A stretch of 64,000 bases of DNA, taken from Candidatus Latescibacterota bacterium. GTDB taxonomy: Bacteria; Latescibacterota; UBA2968; UBA8231. Position 1 is the stretch's first letter. Each line of letters begins with the position of its first letter. Shown here one piece after another: positions 2,536 to 8,033 of this stretch. The notes below the pieces were generated by a model. It was not told the DNA's origin, ran no database searches, and saw only the letters and a list, made by a program, of their open reading frames with translations. The position numbers and the translations under genes are program-made. Location: NCBI GenBank assembly GCA_965261395.1, contig OZ253462.1:2560001-2624000 (forward strand). Reading direction: 5' to 3'.

Positions 2536-2798
2536 CGTCGCTCTTCCATCACGATGTCCGCAACGCTTTTCTGTCCGGGTTTGACGCGCACGGGGTGCGT
2601 CGCACCTCTCGGTTTTTCCCCCGTCCCGGCATTGATCCCCGGCAGGGTGGCCAGCCGCTCTTCCAACGGGAGAGACGGTAGCGGCACGAGGCGGGCGATG
2701 GGCTTCCCCCTCAACGTTACGACGACCGTCTCTCCCTGCTGGACTTGCCGAAGATAGCGCGATAACCTGCTCTTCAGGTCGCGTACGGATGCGTTCAT
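2532..2798 (-). CDS. Phd/YefM-family antitoxin
   Basis: ASVRDLKSRLSRYLRQVQQGETVVVTLRGKPIARLVP. Confidence 0.9.
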   Translation of the reverse strand: MNASVRDLKSRLSRYLRQVQQGETVVVTLRGKPIARLVPLPSLPLEERLATLPGINAGTGEKPRGATHPVRVKPGQKSVADIVMEERR

Positions 2799-2809
2799 TT
2801 CGATCTCCT

Positions 2810-2856
2810 TGTAACTACATTGAGATAATTGTAGTCACATTGGATTCTCAAGGCAA
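2810..2856 (-). promoter_or_regulatory. Sigma70 promoter and palindromic operator of the Phd-VapC operon
   Basis: Minus strand TTGCCT-17bp-TACAAT; inverted repeat TGTAACTACA (2810-2819) / TGTAGTCACA (2830-2839) overlaps the -10. Confidence 0.6.
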
Positions 2857-2873
2857 GCACGGCCTAGCCCGGC

Positions 2874-2901
2874 TTGACGGAATCCGGCGTTCCTCTATCT
2901 T
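2874..2901 (+). promoter_or_regulatory. Putative promoter of the aspS leader
   Basis: TTGACG-16bp-TATCTT. Confidence 0.45.
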
Positions 2902-2903
2902 GG

Positions 2904-2978
2904 ATGGCTATGATGACTCGTCAAAACGACCGCATGCAAAATAATAATAACCCGCTGGTCCCATTGCGCGTGTTCTGA
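2904..2978 (+). CDS. Asn-rich leader peptide of aspS (MAMMTRQNDRMQNNNNPLVPLRVF)
   Basis: 24-aa ORF with AAT AAT AAT AAC at 2940-2951; alternative starts at 2910/2913/2934; its 3' end can pair with the downstream terminator. Confidence 0.7.
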   Translation: MAMMTRQNDRMQNNNNPLVPLRVF

Positions 2979-3009
2979 CGACTGACTCCAACCCAATCCA
3001 AGAATTCAC

Positions 3010-3050
3010 AACCCGTCGCGAACACGCATCGCGGCGGGTTTTCTGTTTTT
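3010..3050 (+). terminator. Intrinsic (attenuator) terminator upstream of aspS
   Basis: 12-bp stem AACCCGTCGCGA / TCGCGGCGGGTT (one G-U) followed by TTCTGTTTTT, directly before the AGGAGG RBS. Confidence 0.75.
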
Positions 3051-3062
3051 AGGAGGCTAACC

Positions 3063-4823
3063 ATGCACCGCTATCGCACCCACACCTGTGGCGAACTCCG
3101 CAAGCGCCACGCCGGCCAGACCATTGGCCTGAGCGGCTGGATACACCGCAGAAGGGACCACGGGGGCGTACTGTTCCTAGATCTGCGCGACCACTACGGC
3201 ATCACCCAACTGGTGATCTCGCCGGAAAATGACGCTGCGACCACCGCGGCAAAGATCCCCCGCGAATCCGTAATTCGCGTCCTAGGCGACGTGCGCGAAC
3301 GATCGCCTGCGGCCATTAACAGCGCCATGAAAACCGGAGAGATTGAAATCGCCGTCCGCGAGATAGAAGTACTCTCGCCGGCGGAGCCGCTCCCCTTTTC
3401 CGTGGCCGAAGACCCCGAAGTGGGCGAGAGCACCCGCTTGTCCTATCGCTTCCTCGACCTGCGCCGGGCCGGGCTGCACCGCCGCATTCAGCTCCGCTCG
3501 GACGTGATCGCCAGCATCAGACGGCGCATGACGGGCATGGGTTTTGCCGAGTTCCAGACGCCCATTCTCACCAGCAGCTCGCCCGAGGGCGCACGCGATT
3601 ACCTCGTGCCGAGCCGACTCTATCCCGGCCACTTCTACGCACTGCCGCAGGCACCGCAGCAGTTCAAGCAGTTGCTGATGGTGTCCGGCTTTGATCGCTA
3701 CTTCCAGATCGCACCCTGCTTCCGCGACGAAGATGCCCGCGCCGACCGCTCCCCTGGCGAGTTCTATCAGCTCGACCTCGAGATGGCCTTTGTCGAGCAG
3801 GAGGATGTCTTTGCTGTGGTCGAGGAACTCTTTTCCGGTCTCTTTCGCGAGTTCACCGATTGGGAAGTGCCCGCGCCGCCGTTCCCGCGTCTTTCCCACG
3901 CCGACGCCATGTTGCGGTTCGGCACGGACAAACCAGACCTGCGCTTCGCACTCGAAATCCAGGACCTCTCCGAGATTTTCGCGGATTCCTCGTTCAGGCT
4001 GTTCAGGGATATCGTCGCAGCAGGAGGGGTCGTCCGCGCCCTGTGCGTTCCCGGACTGGAGGCGCAGCCGCGCTCGTTTTTCGACAGCCTCGAAACATTC
4101 GTCAAAGAAGCGGGCGGCAAGGGGCTGGCATATCTCATCAACGGAGCGCAGGCCACAGGCTCAATCGCCGCGGCCCTAGAACAGAGCGTGCGCAGTCGCA
4201 TTATCGAGGAATGCGCCGCCGCTCCGGGATCAGCCATTTTCTTTATCGCCGGACCGCCAGCCGAGGTAGCGACTCTAGCGGGACGGTTGCGCCTGCATCT
4301 GGCGGATCGGCTCGATTTGCGTAGGGAAGGTTGCTATGAATTCTGCTGGGTCGTCGATTTTCCCATGTACGAATGGGACGCGGAACACGCTTGTGTGGCC
4401 TTTTCACACAACCCGTTTTCCATGCCGCAGGGTGGCATGGCTGCGCTGGAGACGCAACCGCCGCTGGAGATCAAGGCGTATCAGTACGACATCGTCTGCA
4501 ACGGCCTCGAACTGTCGAGCGGTGCCATCCGCAATCACAGACCAGACATCATGTACAAGGCGTTCGAGATTGCCGGACATTCGCAACGGGAAGTCGATCG
4601 CAGGTTCGGGGGCATGATCCGCGCCTTGCGCTACGGCGCTCCGCCCCACGGCGGCATCGCCCCCGGCATCGACCGCATCGTCATGCTGCTGGCGGACGAA
4701 CCGAACATACGGGAGGTCATCGCCTTCCCGATGAACCAGAATGCGCAGGATCCGCTCATGGGCGCTCCGGGAGAAGTGTCGCCTGAGCAGTTGCGGGAGT
4801 TGCACATAGCGGTTCGGGAGTGA
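3063..4823 (+). CDS. aspS: Aspartate--tRNA(Asp/Asn) ligase, probably non-discriminating
   Basis: [16 protein letters not shown] (His typical of non-discriminating enzymes), [37 protein letters not shown]. Confidence 0.97.
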
Positions 4824-4871
4824 TATTATTCTTGAAATGGACCTCAGCGACCCAAGAAAGTGAGCCCTGCC

Positions 4872-5810
4872 ATGAAAACACAACGCTACCAACTCCGCAT
4901 CAGCGGTTTAAGAGAAGACAAAGGTCAAATCAAGATAGCGACTCTCCGGCGTGTTATGGACGCCCTTCTCGTGATAGCAGAGAGGACCACCCGCTTGCTC
5001 GCTACGGGCGCAGGTAGTGGGAGGGGAGCGAGGCCTCAGTGGCTGGACGCCACCATTGACTTCACGATAACTAGATTGAAATCCGGATCTACGATTTTTG
5101 ACATAGAGGCTCCCCAGCTTAGTGAGACTGCCTACGCACAATTTGTCCAAGAAGATTTATGGAGCAAGCAGCCCAGCCTAGACGAAACGGCGCTCGATCT
5201 GGTAGCTCAATCGATCAAAGAGACCCAGACCGACAATCCAATTGGAGACTATTTCGACAGTTCGGTTCTCGAAGCGATTCTCAAGTTCAGGCAAGCGGCT
5301 GGCGTTGCTGGTGTGCGCTATGAAATGATCCCTCAAGACACGGCGCATGGGCAATTCAAGCTGGACGACATTACTTGCACATACGCCAAAGAGCGATTGA
5401 ATGACATCCCGACTCCAAGGTCTTTTATCGTAAGTGGAAGGCTCGACGAGATCAAACATGGTAATGGTCGCTTTCGCCTTCTGGTGAGCGAGAAGTCAGC
5501 ACTCTTTGGACGGCTGGACGCGTCATTGGGCGTAGAGGCTTTGCGTCCTCTATGGGGTAAGCAGACCACCATTGAGGGAATGGTGCATTTCAAGGCCAAT
5601 GGGCAGCCGCGATTGATCGAGGCTCGCCGGATTAGTGCTCGACTGGAAAGTGATAGCATTTTCGAAGAAATGCCGTCAGTAGAAGTCCAAAGACCGCGTG
5701 TCCTTTTTTCGGTACAACGCAAACAAGTCAAAGGGTTCGACCCTATTGAGCTTGCGGGCGCATGGCCTGGCGATGAACCCATCGAGGATCTCCTAGCCCA
5801 ACTTGATTGA
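4872..5810 (+). CDS. Hypothetical protein preceding a PIN remnant (possible large antitoxin)
   Basis: 312-aa ORF from ATG 4872 (track start 4860); acidic tail WPGDEPIEDLLAQLD; 11 nt before a PIN-like start. Confidence 0.65.
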   Translation: MKTQRYQLRISGLREDKGQIKIATLRRVMDALLVIAERTTRLLATGAGSGRGARPQWLDATIDFTITRLKSGSTIFDIEAPQLSETAYAQFVQEDLWSKQPSLDETALDLVAQSIKETQTDNPIGDYFDSSVLEAILKFRQAAGVAGVRYEMIPQDTAHGQFKLDDITCTYAKERLNDIPTPRSFIVSGRLDEIKHGNGRFRLLVSEKSALFGRLDASLGVEALRPLWGKQTTIEGMVHFKANGQPRLIEARRISARLESDSIFEEMPSVEVQRPRVLFSVQRKQVKGFDPIELAGAWPGDEPIEDLLAQLD

Positions 5811-5821
5811 GCGATATTTTT

Positions 5822-5968
5822 ATGACGCGTTTCCTCCTAGACACGAATCTGTTGCTCGGTTTCGCCCGGAAAGCATCGTGGGCTATCCGGGCTCGCGCAG
5901 AATTCAATCTCGGAGATCCAATAAGCGACCTGACCATGCCCATTCGGGAGCCAATACAGAAAGGCTAA
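5822..5968 (+). pseudogene. Truncated PIN/VapC toxin
   Basis: MTRFLLDTNLLLGFARK...; PIN N-terminal LLDTN motif, only 48 aa. Confidence 0.65.
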
Positions 5969-5978
5969 ACGCATATGT

Positions 5979-6026
5979 ATGAAAGAGTTTACGGTGATTA
6001 TCGAGCAGGACGCGGGACGGCAATAA
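5979..6026 (+). pseudogene. HicB-like antitoxin N-terminal remnant
   Basis: MKEFTVIIEQDAGRQ*, resembling the HicB start FTVIIEQDEDG. Confidence 0.45.
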
Positions 6027-6047
6027 TCGTCTTGAACGTACATACTC

Positions 6048-8033
6048 ATGCCTGACCACAGCTACTTCGCTAACCTGATCTGGCAGATCGCCGACCTGCT
6101 GCGCGGTCCCTACCGCCCGCCGCAGTACGAGCGCGTCATGCTGCCTATGACCGTGCTGCGGAGGTTCGACTGCGTGCTTGCTCCGAGCAAGCCCGAAGTC
6201 TTGGCCGAGTACAGCCGCTGGGGCGGGAGACTCGACGGCGAAGCGCTCGACGTTAGGCTGAACAGGGCTGCCGGTCAGCGCTTTCACAACCACTCGCCGC
6301 TCGATTTCGAGAAGCTCAAGGGCGATCCAGATAACATCGCCCGGCACCTCGTCAGTTACATCCAAGGCTTTTCGGCCAACGTGCGCCGCATCTTCGAGTA
6401 CTTCGAGTTTGAGACTGAGATCGAGAAGATGCAGGAGTCGAATATCCTCTACCTCGTCGTCTCAAAGTTCTGCGATGTAGATCTACACCCCGATAGAGTT
6501 CCGAACGAGCAAATGGGTCTTCTCTTCGAGAACCTCATCCGCCGCTTCAACGAGTTGGCGAACGAGACTGCAGGCGACCACTTCACGCCGCGCGAGGTCA
6601 TCCGGCTAATGGTGAGCATCCTCTTCATTCACGACGACGAACTGCTCGCCACGCCCGGCACCGTGCGTAAGCTCCTCGACCCCGCTTGTGGCACCGGCGG
6701 CATGTTGGCCGAGGCGCAAAATTACCTGCGAGATCTCCACGCCGCTGCCCGGCTCTACGTCTATGGGCAGGACTATAACAACCGCGCCTTTGCCACCGCA
6801 GCCTCCGACATGTTGATGAAGCAGGTTGATCACAACGGCGGCGGAGACAGCATCCGCTTCGGAGACAGCCTTACAGGGGATCAATTCGAGGGTGAGACCT
6901 TCGACTACTTCCTCACCAATCCGCCCTTCGGCGTGGACTGGAAGAGGCAGAAGAATGAGATCCAGAGGGAACACGACAAGCTCGGATTCGAGGGCCGCTT
7001 CGGCGCTGGACTCCCGCGAGTGAATGACGGCTCGCTGCTTTTCTTACAGCATATGACCCACAAGTTTGAGCCAGTACGCCCAGACGAGCACAAGCACGGC
7101 TCGCGCTTGGCCATCGTATTCAGTGGCTCGCCGCTCTTTACCGGCGGTGCTGGCTCCGGCGAGAGCGACATTCGCAAGTGGATCATCGAAAACGATTGGC
7201 TTGAAGCCATCATCGCCTTGCCGGAACAGATGTTCTACAACACCGGCATCGGCACCTACGTATGGATCGTCACCAACCGCAAAGAGAAGCGGCGGCAGGG
7301 GAAAATCCAGCTTCTTGATGCCCGCGACTTGTGGACCGCGGGCGGGAGTGAAGACAACAAGCGCAGCCTTGGCGATAAGCGCCGCCACATCGCCGCAGAG
7401 CAGATTGAGGAGATCGTGCAGCTATATGGCCGCTTTGAGGACGGCGAGCGCTCCAAGCTCTTCGACAACGCTGACTTCGGCTACACACGCGTGACCGTGG
7501 AGCAACCTCTGCGCTTGCGCTACCAGATGACCATAGAAGACAAGTCCCGCTTTCTCGATGCCTGCCCGTACCTGCTCGACGACGTGCAGGCCATCGACAA
7601 GGCGTTGGGACGCGAGCCGAAGTACGACTGGAATGCGACATGGGAGAGCATTGCCGATCTCCTGCATGAGCACCAATCGCGCTGGAAGAAGGTAGAACAG
7701 AGGCTCTTCCGAGATGTCTTCACCGAGAAGGATCCGCAAGCCGAGCGGGTCAGGAAAGATGGCCGGGAGAAAGGCTACGAGCCTGACACCGCGCTGCGCG
7801 ACTTCGAGAACGTGCCGCTTAAAGACAACATTGACGCCTACTTCGAGCGCGAGGTAGCACCCCACCTTCCCGACGCTTGGATGGACCGCGACAAGGACAA
7901 GGTCGGTTACGAGATCAACTTCAACCGCCATTTCTATAAGTACACGCCGCCGCGCCCGCTGGAAGAGATTGACGCAGATCTGAAGAAGGCGGAGAAAACG
8001 ATCTTGCGGCTGTTGAAGGAGGTGACGGAGTGA
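6048..8033 (+). CDS. hsdM: Type I RM methyltransferase subunit M
   Basis: AGDHFTPREV, LDPACGTGGML, TNPPFG (amino-methyltransferase motif), MFYNTGIGTY, KVGYEINFNRHFY. Confidence 0.95.
   Translation: MPDHSYFANLIWQIADLLRGPYRPPQYERVMLPMTVLRRFDCVLAPSKPEVLAEYSRWGGRLDGEALDVRLNRAAGQRFHNHSPLDFEKLKGDPDNIARHLVSYIQGFSANVRRIFEYFEFETEIEKMQESNILYLVVSKFCDVDLHPDRVPNEQMGLLFENLIRRFNELANETAGDHFTPREVIRLMVSILFIHDDELLATPGTVRKLLDPACGTGGMLAEAQNYLRDLHAAARLYVYGQDYNNRAFATAASDMLMKQVDHNGGGDSIRFGDSLTGDQFEGETFDYFLTNPPFGVDWKRQKNEIQREHDKLGFEGRFGAGLPRVNDGSLLFLQHMTHKFEPVRPDEHKHGSRLAIVFSGSPLFTGGAGSGESDIRKWIIENDWLEAIIALPEQMFYNTGIGTYVWIVTNRKEKRRQGKIQLLDARDLWTAGGSEDNKRSLGDKRRHIAAEQIEEIVQLYGRFEDGERSKLFDNADFGYTRVTVEQPLRLRYQMTIEDKSRFLDACPYLLDDVQAIDKALGREPKYDWNATWESIADLLHEHQSRWKKVEQRLFRDVFTEKDPQAERVRKDGREKGYEPDTALRDFENVPLKDNIDAYFEREVAPHLPDAWMDRDKDKVGYEINFNRHFYKYTPPRPLEEIDADLKKAEKTILRLLKEVTE

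Follow-up and report, generated by a model that had tools for sequence, protein, structure and literature searches.

A candidate asparagine-codon leader-peptide attenuator upstream of an accessory aspartyl-tRNA synthetase gene in a Latescibacterota bacterium

Features of the aspS2 locus

The window analysed here is a stretch of 64,000 nucleotides (nt) from the genome of Candidatus Latescibacterota bacterium (assembly GCA_965261395.1, contig OZ253462.1, positions 2,560,001 to 2,624,000 of the forward strand), and coordinates given without further label refer to it. It contains aspS2, an accessory gene for a bacterial-type aspartyl-tRNA synthetase (AspRS), which is preceded by a short open reading frame (ORF) rich in Asn codons, an intrinsic terminator and a predicted antiterminator that overlaps both the stop codon of the short ORF and the 5' arm of the terminator. 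This element appears to be a ribosome-mediated (leader-peptide) transcription attenuator. The features of the locus are the following.

2874–2901, + strand: sigma-70-like promoter detected by a consensus scan, with the −35 hexamer TTGACG (2874–2879), a 16-nt spacer and the −10 hexamer TATCTT (2896–2901)
2910–2978, + strand: leader ORF, 22 codons and UGA, encoding MMTRQNDRMQNNNNPLVPLRVF followed by the stop; intact in 20 of 21 relatives
2918–2934, + strand: region 1, pairs with region 2 (15 pairs, −14.4 kcal/mol)
2925–2930, + strand: first regulatory codons AAC GAC (Asn-Asp), inside region 1
2940–2951, + strand: run of four Asn codons, AAT AAT AAT AAC
2965–2983, + strand: region 2, carrying the 5' strand of the antiterminator (2968–2980) and the leader stop UGA (2976–2978)
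2984–3009, + strand: variable spacer of 26 nt, the antiterminator loop, with indels among relatives
3010–3050, + strand: intrinsic terminator, stem 3010–3021 with 3029–3040 (12 pairs), loop ACACGCA, then TTCTGTTTTT
3014–3027, + strand: region 3, the 3' strand of the antiterminator, comprising part of the terminator 5' arm and its loop
3051–3056, + strand: Shine-Dalgarno sequence of aspS2, AGGAGG, 6 nt 5' of the ATG and one base after the T-run
3063–4823, + strand: aspS2, accessory bacterial-type AspRS of 586 amino acids (aa); NF001750, 804 bits against a cut-off of 443

The open frame that the initial annotation of this region had placed at 2904–2978, with the four Asn codons at 2940–2951 and AAC GAC at 2925–2930, is present as described; the 12-bp terminator with a U-tract is recovered at 3010–3050 by a terminator scan, with 8 of the 12 stem pairs being G-C; and the complementarity reported between 2968–2980 and 3014–3027 amounts to 13 pairs with one bulged C, at −17.5 kcal/mol. 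The peptide had been counted as 24 aa, and here the open frame stands whereas its start is revised. The ATG at 2904 sits between the −10 hexamer and the expected transcript start, is probably located upstream of the latter, and is absent as a conserved feature in relatives, in contrast to the conserved ATG at 2910, so that the peptide should be read as consisting of 22 residues rather than 24. In most of the 21 relatives, 8 nt separate the −10 hexamer from the ATG at 2910, and because of this short distance, leader translation probably starts on a leaderless or nearly leaderless transcript. Promoter-like hexamers, TTGACG or TTGACA combined with a TATCTT-like sequence, are likewise found in most of these relatives, including representatives of two other genera (L026 and L037), and are missing in L009, L019 and L021.

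Alternative RNA structures

Helix energies obtained with ViennaRNA amount to −21.1 kcal/mol for the terminator helix 3:4 (3010–3021 with 3029–3040), −17.5 kcal/mol for the antiterminator helix 2:3 (13 pairs and one bulge) and −14.4 kcal/mol for helix 1:2 (2918–2934 with 2965–2981). Folding recovers the terminator and the antiterminator as mutually exclusive alternatives, and in the full-length RNA the two states are close (−37.2 kcal/mol for the terminator state and −33.4 kcal/mol for the antiterminator state). The fold of 2900–3062 compared to shuffled sequences yields z = −2.27.

The effect of a translating ribosome was modelled by folding the nascent RNA (2910–3030) with 30 nt masked around the A site. 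For each of the five Asn codons placed in the A site, the antiterminator is predicted to form completely (13 of 13 pairs); with the leader stop in the A site, none of the 13 pairs is predicted to form. These folds agree with the original proposal that stalling on Asn codons would free the antiterminator and that a ribosome at the stop codon would block it.

Occurrence and conservation of the leader in relatives

A DNA search with 2904–3050 as the query was run against 61 genomes, that is, this genome and 60 relatives, of which 31 genomes, including this one, constitute the genus. In 21 of the 61 genomes, all of which hold aspS2, the leader is present in exactly one copy, located directly 5' of the orthologous aspS2; the same search finds it in 0 of the 39 genomes that lack aspS2. 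In the 22nd genome with aspS2 (G024), the contig ends inside the gene. Readable upstream regions number 21, namely 20 from loci of aspS2 holders and one from a metagenome-assembled genome (L037); two more loci are lost at contig ends.

The geometry that the initial annotation had compared to the trp, his and pheST attenuators recurs in 20 of the 21 leaders, with the frame, the stop inside the antiterminator strand and the Asn run all in place: these leaders retain the ATG, an identical UGA, three to six Asn codons and zero or one Asp codon. The changes among them include synonymous ones (AAT/AAC, GAC/GAT, ACT/ACC and CAA/CAG), and the differences in length (+18 in two distant relatives, +6, −3 and −6 nt) are all multiples of three. 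The codon pair at 2925–2930 encodes ND in 17 leaders, NN in two, KD in one and NA in one (21 leaders, with L019 excluded). The Asn run comprises two to four codons, with AAT/AAC swaps, and the longer forms in L026 and L037 contain six Asn codons.

Identity to the window, averaged over 20 relatives, is 97.9% in region 2 and 98.2% in the terminator, 82.7% in the segment from the start through region 1, 76.9% in the Asn-run segment and 82.5% in the spacer; in aspS2 of the two most distant relatives, third codon positions are 68% and 70% identical. Across the 21 sequences, 90.9% of the cells are paired in helix 1:2, 98.5% in the antiterminator and 99.2% in the terminator. One antiterminator pair varies as U-A in 18 sequences, U-G in one and C-G in one, with one mismatch, and the other changes are one-sided wobble substitutions. 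The sole compensatory antiterminator change, from U-A to C-G, comes from L021 (G006, 1334–1479), together with a new C-A mismatch; this locus has lost its promoter hexamers and retains two codons of the Asn run. In L019 (G004, 1161–1306), the 5' half of leader 1 is replaced, an in-frame TAG precedes region 2 and the terminator contains a C-A mismatch, so that this leader looks like a decaying copy; the second leader at this locus is intact.

A second, tandem leader

Between terminator 1 and aspS2, 14 of the 21 loci carry a second module, which can also be seen in what remains of one cut locus; the genome of the window possesses the first module alone. Leader 2 starts 8 nt downstream of an AGGAG Shine-Dalgarno sequence, consists of 28–30 codons (encoding MTFRHKHTARAFSHNNDDNNPAIRARWRWP, followed by the stop) and is equipped with its own terminator (−24.8 kcal/mol) and a 17-pair antiterminator. 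It contains four to six Asn and one or two Asp codons arranged in runs reading NNDDNN, NNNDNN, NDNDNN or SDSNNN, in which N and D interchange between relatives and little else enters. The variable bases of region 3 in leader 2 fit both of its partners, e.g., UG/UA/CG in the terminator and GU/GC in the antiterminator. Leaders 1 and 2 align with a score of 68, above all 500 shuffles (45.2 +/- 5.9), and the tandem form is therefore probably the result of a duplication. The AGGAG(G) that serves as the Shine-Dalgarno sequence of aspS2 in the single form is that of leader 2 in the tandem form (L007–L018 etc.), and thus marks the exact joint at which a module of 160–180 nt was gained or lost.

Asn codons against the genomic background

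Leader 1 contains five Asn codons and one Asp codon among its 22 codons. Genome-wide, Asn accounts for 2.95% of the codons (1376 long ORFs; G+C content of 59.3%) and AAT is the rarer of the two Asn codons (35%). The pattern (AAY)4 occurs at 13 sites in both strands of the whole genome (13 Mb), and short ATG-initiated ORFs (up to 50 aa) with at least three consecutive Asn codons number 10 in 6.5 Mb; the leader described here is the only one of these with a four-codon run. None of these ten ORFs adjoins gatA, gatB, gatC or asnS.

An nhmmer search of this genome with both leader alignments returns the known site alone, with no other match below E = 1. A scan of 2700–3200 against Rfam (E up to 10) detects no T-box, riboswitch or leader family; the best match is CrfA, a terminator-like piece (E of 0.4, 18.8 bits against a gathering score of 38).

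The two AspRS genes and the specificity of their products

The genome, a single 6.55-Mb contig with an estimated completeness of 95%, encodes two bacterial-type AspRS of 586 and 594 aa; a second aspS was among the points that the initial annotation had named for checking. The housekeeping gene, aspS1 (C1:4086419–4088164), encodes a protein with 44% identity to AspRS2. Whereas 58 of the 61 genomes match an aspS query at E ≤ 1e-100, aspS2 (84–96% identical) is present in 22 of the 61, namely 21 of the 31 genomes of the genus and one from another genus of the family. Judging by this distribution, aspS2 is an accessory paralogue. A fragment of aspS2 with 88% identity, covering residues 384–586 and interrupted by two in-frame TGA codons, is found in a genome without the leader (G021:C1:4024582–4025211) and is a pseudogene remnant.

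A FastTree phylogeny was built from 102 of 188 rows, thinned by hand (7 aspS2, 9 aspS1, 76 named loci and 10 metagenome loci). In this tree, aspS2 together with L039, L126 and L127 is the sister group of a large assemblage of alphaproteobacterial and FCB/PVC AspRS, far from AspRS1; no donor lineage for aspS2 is indicated by these 102 rows.

The initial annotation took the RRDHGG motif as a mark of a non-discriminating AspRS. The motif is indeed present in AspRS2, but does not set this copy apart: both proteins contain RRRDHGGV, so that the motif cannot separate AspRS1 from AspRS2. The His of this motif is present in the PDB chains that are named as Asp/Asn ligases (4wj3, 4rmf) and is replaced by Leu in the Asp-only enzyme of Thermus thermophilus (6hhv). 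We take this His to occupy the position of H31 of the Pseudomonas aeruginosa enzyme, for which a role in non-discrimination is reported by Bernard et al. (2006). Judging from the motif, the housekeeping AspRS1 is likely to be non-discriminating already. A Gly at the position of P. aeruginosa G82, another residue linked to non-discriminating AspRS, is absent in AspRS2, where SPAAI aligns to PEGAR of P. aeruginosa with an Ala at this position, and AspRS1 has PEG. Ranking of PDB matches was also tried as a means to call specificity and was set aside as indecisive, given that the best matches of AspRS2, T. thermophilus AspRS1 and the P. aeruginosa enzyme, score alike.

The asparagine pathway

All three subunits of the amidotransferase GatCAB, which were among the genes named for checking in the initial annotation, are encoded in this genome and score over the respective cut-offs: gatA with 625 bits (C1 3603598–3604998), gatB with 567 bits (C1 1606320–1607738) and gatC with 95 bits (C1 5080779–5081057). 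The three genes are scattered over the chromosome and do not form an operon. Contrary to the expectation stated there, asnS is present (554 bits against a cut-off of 414), as is glnS (698 bits against 426). A profile search of this approximately 95% complete genome does not find asnA, and for asnB there is no match over the cut-off, the PF00733 matches being fragments of the PP-loop only. Given the presence of gatCAB together with the lack of asnA and of an asnB over the cut-off, asparagine synthesis in this genome looks tRNA-dependent, i.e., asparagine would be made on tRNA(Asn). The underlying logic of an Asp enzyme placed under the control of Asn-tRNA still holds. The single tRNA-Asn(GUU) has U1-A72 and tRNA-Asp has G1-C72; U1-A72 is the base pair screened for as a mark of the transamidation route in the cited part of PMC4206432. 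As genome-wide traits, gatCAB and this pair apply equally to AspRS1.

Across the 61 genomes, gatB is found in 57, asnS in 57 and glnS in 56. Within the genus, with asnB counted where it scores over its cut-off, 20 of the 31 genomes possess aspS2 and lack asnB, one possesses both genes, three possess asnB alone and seven possess neither. The complementarity between aspS2 and asnB is thus partial, and related genomes are not independent observations.

Proposed mechanism

Taken together, these observations are best compatible with a leader-peptide transcription attenuator that relies on Asn and Asp codons and controls aspS2; we put the probability of this reading at a little under 0.8. Transcription would start at the AUG at 2910 or no more than a few bases from it, and translation of the 22-codon leader would accompany the synthesis of the RNA. 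With ample Asn-tRNA(Asn) and Asp-tRNA(Asp), the ribosome would reach the UGA at 2976–2978 and cover region 2 (2965–2983), leaving regions 3 and 4 to form the terminator (3010–3040 and the U-run), so that the transcript would end before aspS2. When charged tRNA(Asn) is scarce, the ribosome would stall at 2925–2927 or 2940–2951, and region 2 would remain free to form 13 pairs with region 3, blocking the terminator and allowing transcription of aspS2. In the tandem form, both terminators would need read-through, which would make the response steeper.

The benefit of such regulation is suggested by the pathway. The presumed product of AspRS2, Asp-tRNA(Asn), is the substrate of GatCAB, and extra AspRS would relieve the very shortage that the leader senses; the Asp codons would add the direct product of the enzyme as a second input. 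We favour this Asn-supply role of aspS2, if by a modest degree. A stronger version, in which AspRS2 is a dedicated enzyme of asparagine biosynthesis that mainly or exclusively serves tRNA(Asn) and is regulated by the end product through leaderless, often tandem leaders, seems doubtful.

Several observations weigh against the attenuator or against the Asn-supply role. With respect to the enzyme, AspRS2 would have to charge tRNA(Asn), a specificity that is not readable from its sequence, and AspRS1, with the same RRRDHGGV motif, may already supply Asp-tRNA(Asn); furthermore, gatB occurs without aspS2 in nine genomes of the genus and in most of the class. With respect to the leader, no Shine-Dalgarno sequence precedes leader 1, and its translation then hangs on the presumed leaderless start; the 3-nt indels could reflect slippage in the AAT repeat and are accordingly a weak sign of coding. 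With respect to the RNA structure, the ribosome-free nascent RNA also favours the antiterminator (13 of 13 pairs), so that the state of the classical scheme in which helix 1:2 forms and lack of translation leads to termination is not predicted by thermodynamics, and the role of helix 1:2 is uncertain.

Comparative analysis also sets limits. Among the checks named in the initial annotation were conservation of the poly-Asn ORF in orthologous leaders, which is observed in 20 of the 21, and covariation in the stems, where the changes are compatible with the structure but do not exceed shuffle controls: covariation is significant in none of the five helices, with 27 to 500 of 500 shuffles reaching the observed scores; the leader sequences are too alike. 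The structural support therefore consists of conservation and wobble-compatible changes rather than compensatory pairs. Finally, the leaders are confined to one clade (aspS2 at least 84% identical). The more distant loci that were compared comprise 80 genome contigs (three of which come from the same genomes as L006, L011 and L026, and the leader of L037 among them was read by eye) and 80 metagenome contigs; no comparable leader was found in 76 of the former or in the 80 latter, the aspS genes of which are 55–69% identical. A single pattern match among the metagenome loci, MSQGVNDNRLVRSPYLN in L169, is located 403 nt upstream of the gene.

Alternative explanations

An explanation that retains the attenuator and does not exclude the Asn-supply role is that AspRS2 could be an inhibitor-resistant auxiliary enzyme, induced once the housekeeping AspRS is inhibited by compounds such as mimics of aspartyl-adenylate. 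If AspRS1 is non-discriminating, its inhibition would deplete both Asp-tRNA(Asp) and Asn-tRNA(Asn), which would explain the mixture of Asn and Asp codons in the leaders. The accessory status of aspS2 (22 of 61 genomes), the 44% identity of its product to AspRS1 and its placement in another AspRS lineage of the tree, as well as the variable, mobile-type neighbours (a PIN/Phd toxin-antitoxin pair and a type I restriction-modification system) fit such a role, for which the auxiliary tryptophanyl-tRNA synthetase trpRS1 of Streptomyces would be a precedent. However, no inhibitor, biosynthetic cluster or resistance determinant is seen beside aspS2, and the prevalence of Asn over Asp codons in leader 1 (three to six against zero or one) fits Asn supply better than a general failure of AspRS. 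On this balance, drawn by analogy, we consider the inhibitor-resistance role unlikely.

A switch or small RNA that acts without being translated, for example by binding a protein, a tRNA or a metabolite, with the open frame and its Asn codons being a by-product of an A-rich loop, is far less probable. The nucleotide conservation of regions 2 to 4 exceeds the needs of the peptide, leader 1 has no Shine-Dalgarno sequence and the AAT repeat is simple sequence, all of which such an RNA would accommodate. However, no Rfam family scores even weakly (the CrfA piece, with E of 0.4, is the best match), the start, frame and stop are kept in 20 of the 21 leaders despite the indels, and the different second leader contains the same Asn/Asp run with N and D interchanging; moreover, the Asn run lies in a predicted unpaired segment, where an RNA-only element faces no codon-level constraint.

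That the ORF arose by chance beside a constitutive terminator or insulator, with aspS2 expressed by read-through or from another promoter, can hardly be credited: an insulator at a cassette border is conceivable given that the neighbours differ among relatives, and the scan over 1 kb yields three promoter-like sites in all, each a consensus match only, but the genes 5' of the leader face the opposite strand, so that the hairpin has no upstream transcript to terminate, the conserved promoter lies right before the ORF with none found by the consensus scan between the terminator and aspS2, and chance leaves the conserved antiterminator, the Asn runs and the tandem repeat of the whole design unexplained.

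Relation to known systems

Leader-peptide attenuators are textbook regulators of operons for Trp, His, Leu, Thr, Ile/Val and Phe, and of a few synthetase genes. Among the latter, according to the cited part of PMC1262725, pheST is known to be attenuated in gamma-proteobacteria, and attenuation of trpS and leuS is predicted in Streptomyces. The aspS2 leader resembles these in combining a short ORF rich in regulatory codons, an antiterminator competing with a terminator, and a synthetase target. It differs in that the dominant codons specify Asn rather than the enzyme's own amino acid, Asp, so that the sensed product lies two steps on (AspRS, then GatCAB, yielding Asn-tRNA(Asn)), as well as in the phylum (Latescibacterota), the tandem form and the probable leaderless start.

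For trpRS1 of Streptomyces coelicolor, an auxiliary synthetase that is antibiotic-resistant, ribosome-mediated attenuation via a leader with Trp codons is reported by Vecchione and Sello (2010). As in that case, the attenuator controls an accessory synthetase copy and not the housekeeping one; unlike aspS2, for which a resistance role is hypothetical, trpRS1 is a resistance copy that senses the tRNA of its own amino acid. In Clostridium acetobutylicum, an Asn-specific T-box is said to control the genes of tRNA-dependent amidation (Saad et al., 2012). The two systems would share the coupling of the indirect Asn-tRNA(Asn) pathway to tRNA(Asn) charging by transcription attenuation, but the T-box RNA binds uncharged tRNA directly, whereas the sensor of aspS2 would be a translated leader, in a region with no T-box match.

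Leaderless leader peptides have been described before synthetase genes in Deinococcus deserti, in 14 cases (de Groot et al. 2014, PMC4007540). The main text of that paper does not mention aspS, asnS or Asn, and an Asn case is possible among the 14. The coexistence of AsnRS, GlnRS and GatCAB without an asparagine synthetase is documented in Thermus, Deinococcus, Bdellovibrio and Staphylococcus aureus, where, according to the cited parts of the respective papers, GatCAB is kept as transamidation of Asp-tRNA(Asn) is the sole route to asparagine (PMC4206432, PMC6523644, PMC2330236). In the same parts of these papers, no Asn-codon leader is described for any of the four (PMC4206432, PMC6523644, PMC2330236). 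The gene content of the present genome is the same as in these organisms, two of which, Thermus and Deinococcus, also possess two AspRS as far as these sources go. In contrast to the situation here, where both enzymes are of the bacterial type, the second, non-discriminating AspRS of Thermus and Deinococcus is, in these accounts, of the short archaeal type.

Two attenuators in series that depend on short ORFs and sense different signals reportedly precede mgtCBR in Salmonella. The tandem aspS2 leaders similarly stand before one operon, but look like diverged duplicates that sense the same pair of tRNAs. A survey that Lopatovskaya et al. (2010) reportedly made of attenuation in operons for aminoacyl-tRNA synthesis may bear on novelty. 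In a literature search that had this survey and table S9 of de Groot et al. outside its scope, neither an Asn-codon leader nor an aspS leader peptide was found. A 'tRNA synthetase leader' motif is listed before the aspS gene of Shewanella, without a leader peptide (PMC2659441).

The mechanism as such is familiar; what we rate as new is the choice of amino acid, the cross-pathway logic, the duplication in tandem, a start that is probably leaderless and the phylum. If AspRS2 should indeed be a dedicated enzyme of asparagine biosynthesis, this would be the first classical attenuator to sense an aminoacyl-tRNA that lies two enzymatic steps from the synthetase under its control, and the first Asn member of the leader-peptide attenuators, in an uncultured phylum. 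Should the element work as proposed, tRNA-dependent asparagine synthesis would be regulated like a biosynthetic pathway, with an 'Asp' enzyme under the control of tRNA(Asn) charging. It would provide a simple sensor of Asn-tRNA(Asn) that should be portable to Escherichia coli because it combines a sigma-70-like promoter with an intrinsic terminator. The locus also offers a first look at gene regulation in uncultured bacteria of the Latescibacterota type, including possible leaderless leader peptides and the duplication of an attenuator, and raises the question why most of the genus keeps a second AspRS when the housekeeping copy bears the same motif.

RNA-library contigs and gene neighbourhood

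Five RNA-library runs show matches, with small shares (0.04–0.10 of the sampled words), and four were aligned to the region; all are assembled contigs and thus mute on transcript ends, strands and levels. In the contigs of the four runs, 2905–2986 is uncovered, which carries no evidential weight. One contig (X17 record 10, 1080 nt) matches 3020–3055, continues with 178 other letters and then matches 3060–3900 with 68 differences; it is derived from a relative with the tandem form and is unbroken from terminator 1 into aspS2. The RNA library behind this contig may hold DNA, so that the contig is no evidence of read-through.

The neighbourhood of aspS2 looks like an island. A PIN-domain toxin (PF01850) and a Phd/YefM antitoxin (PF02604, TIGR01552), encoded on the − strand at 2053–2798, diverge from the leader promoter, and the control region between this pair and the leader contains a near-palindrome, TTGTAACTACA...TTGTAGTCACA, at approximately 2810–2838. 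The PIN/Phd pair is also located beside aspS2 in some relatives (L010, L022 and L024), though not in others. On the 3' side of aspS2 (4860–8033, + strand), an ORF of 316 aa without a family match and a type I restriction-modification HsdM methylase (PF02384, PF12161) are encoded; the scan indicates no terminator-like site between aspS2 and these two genes.

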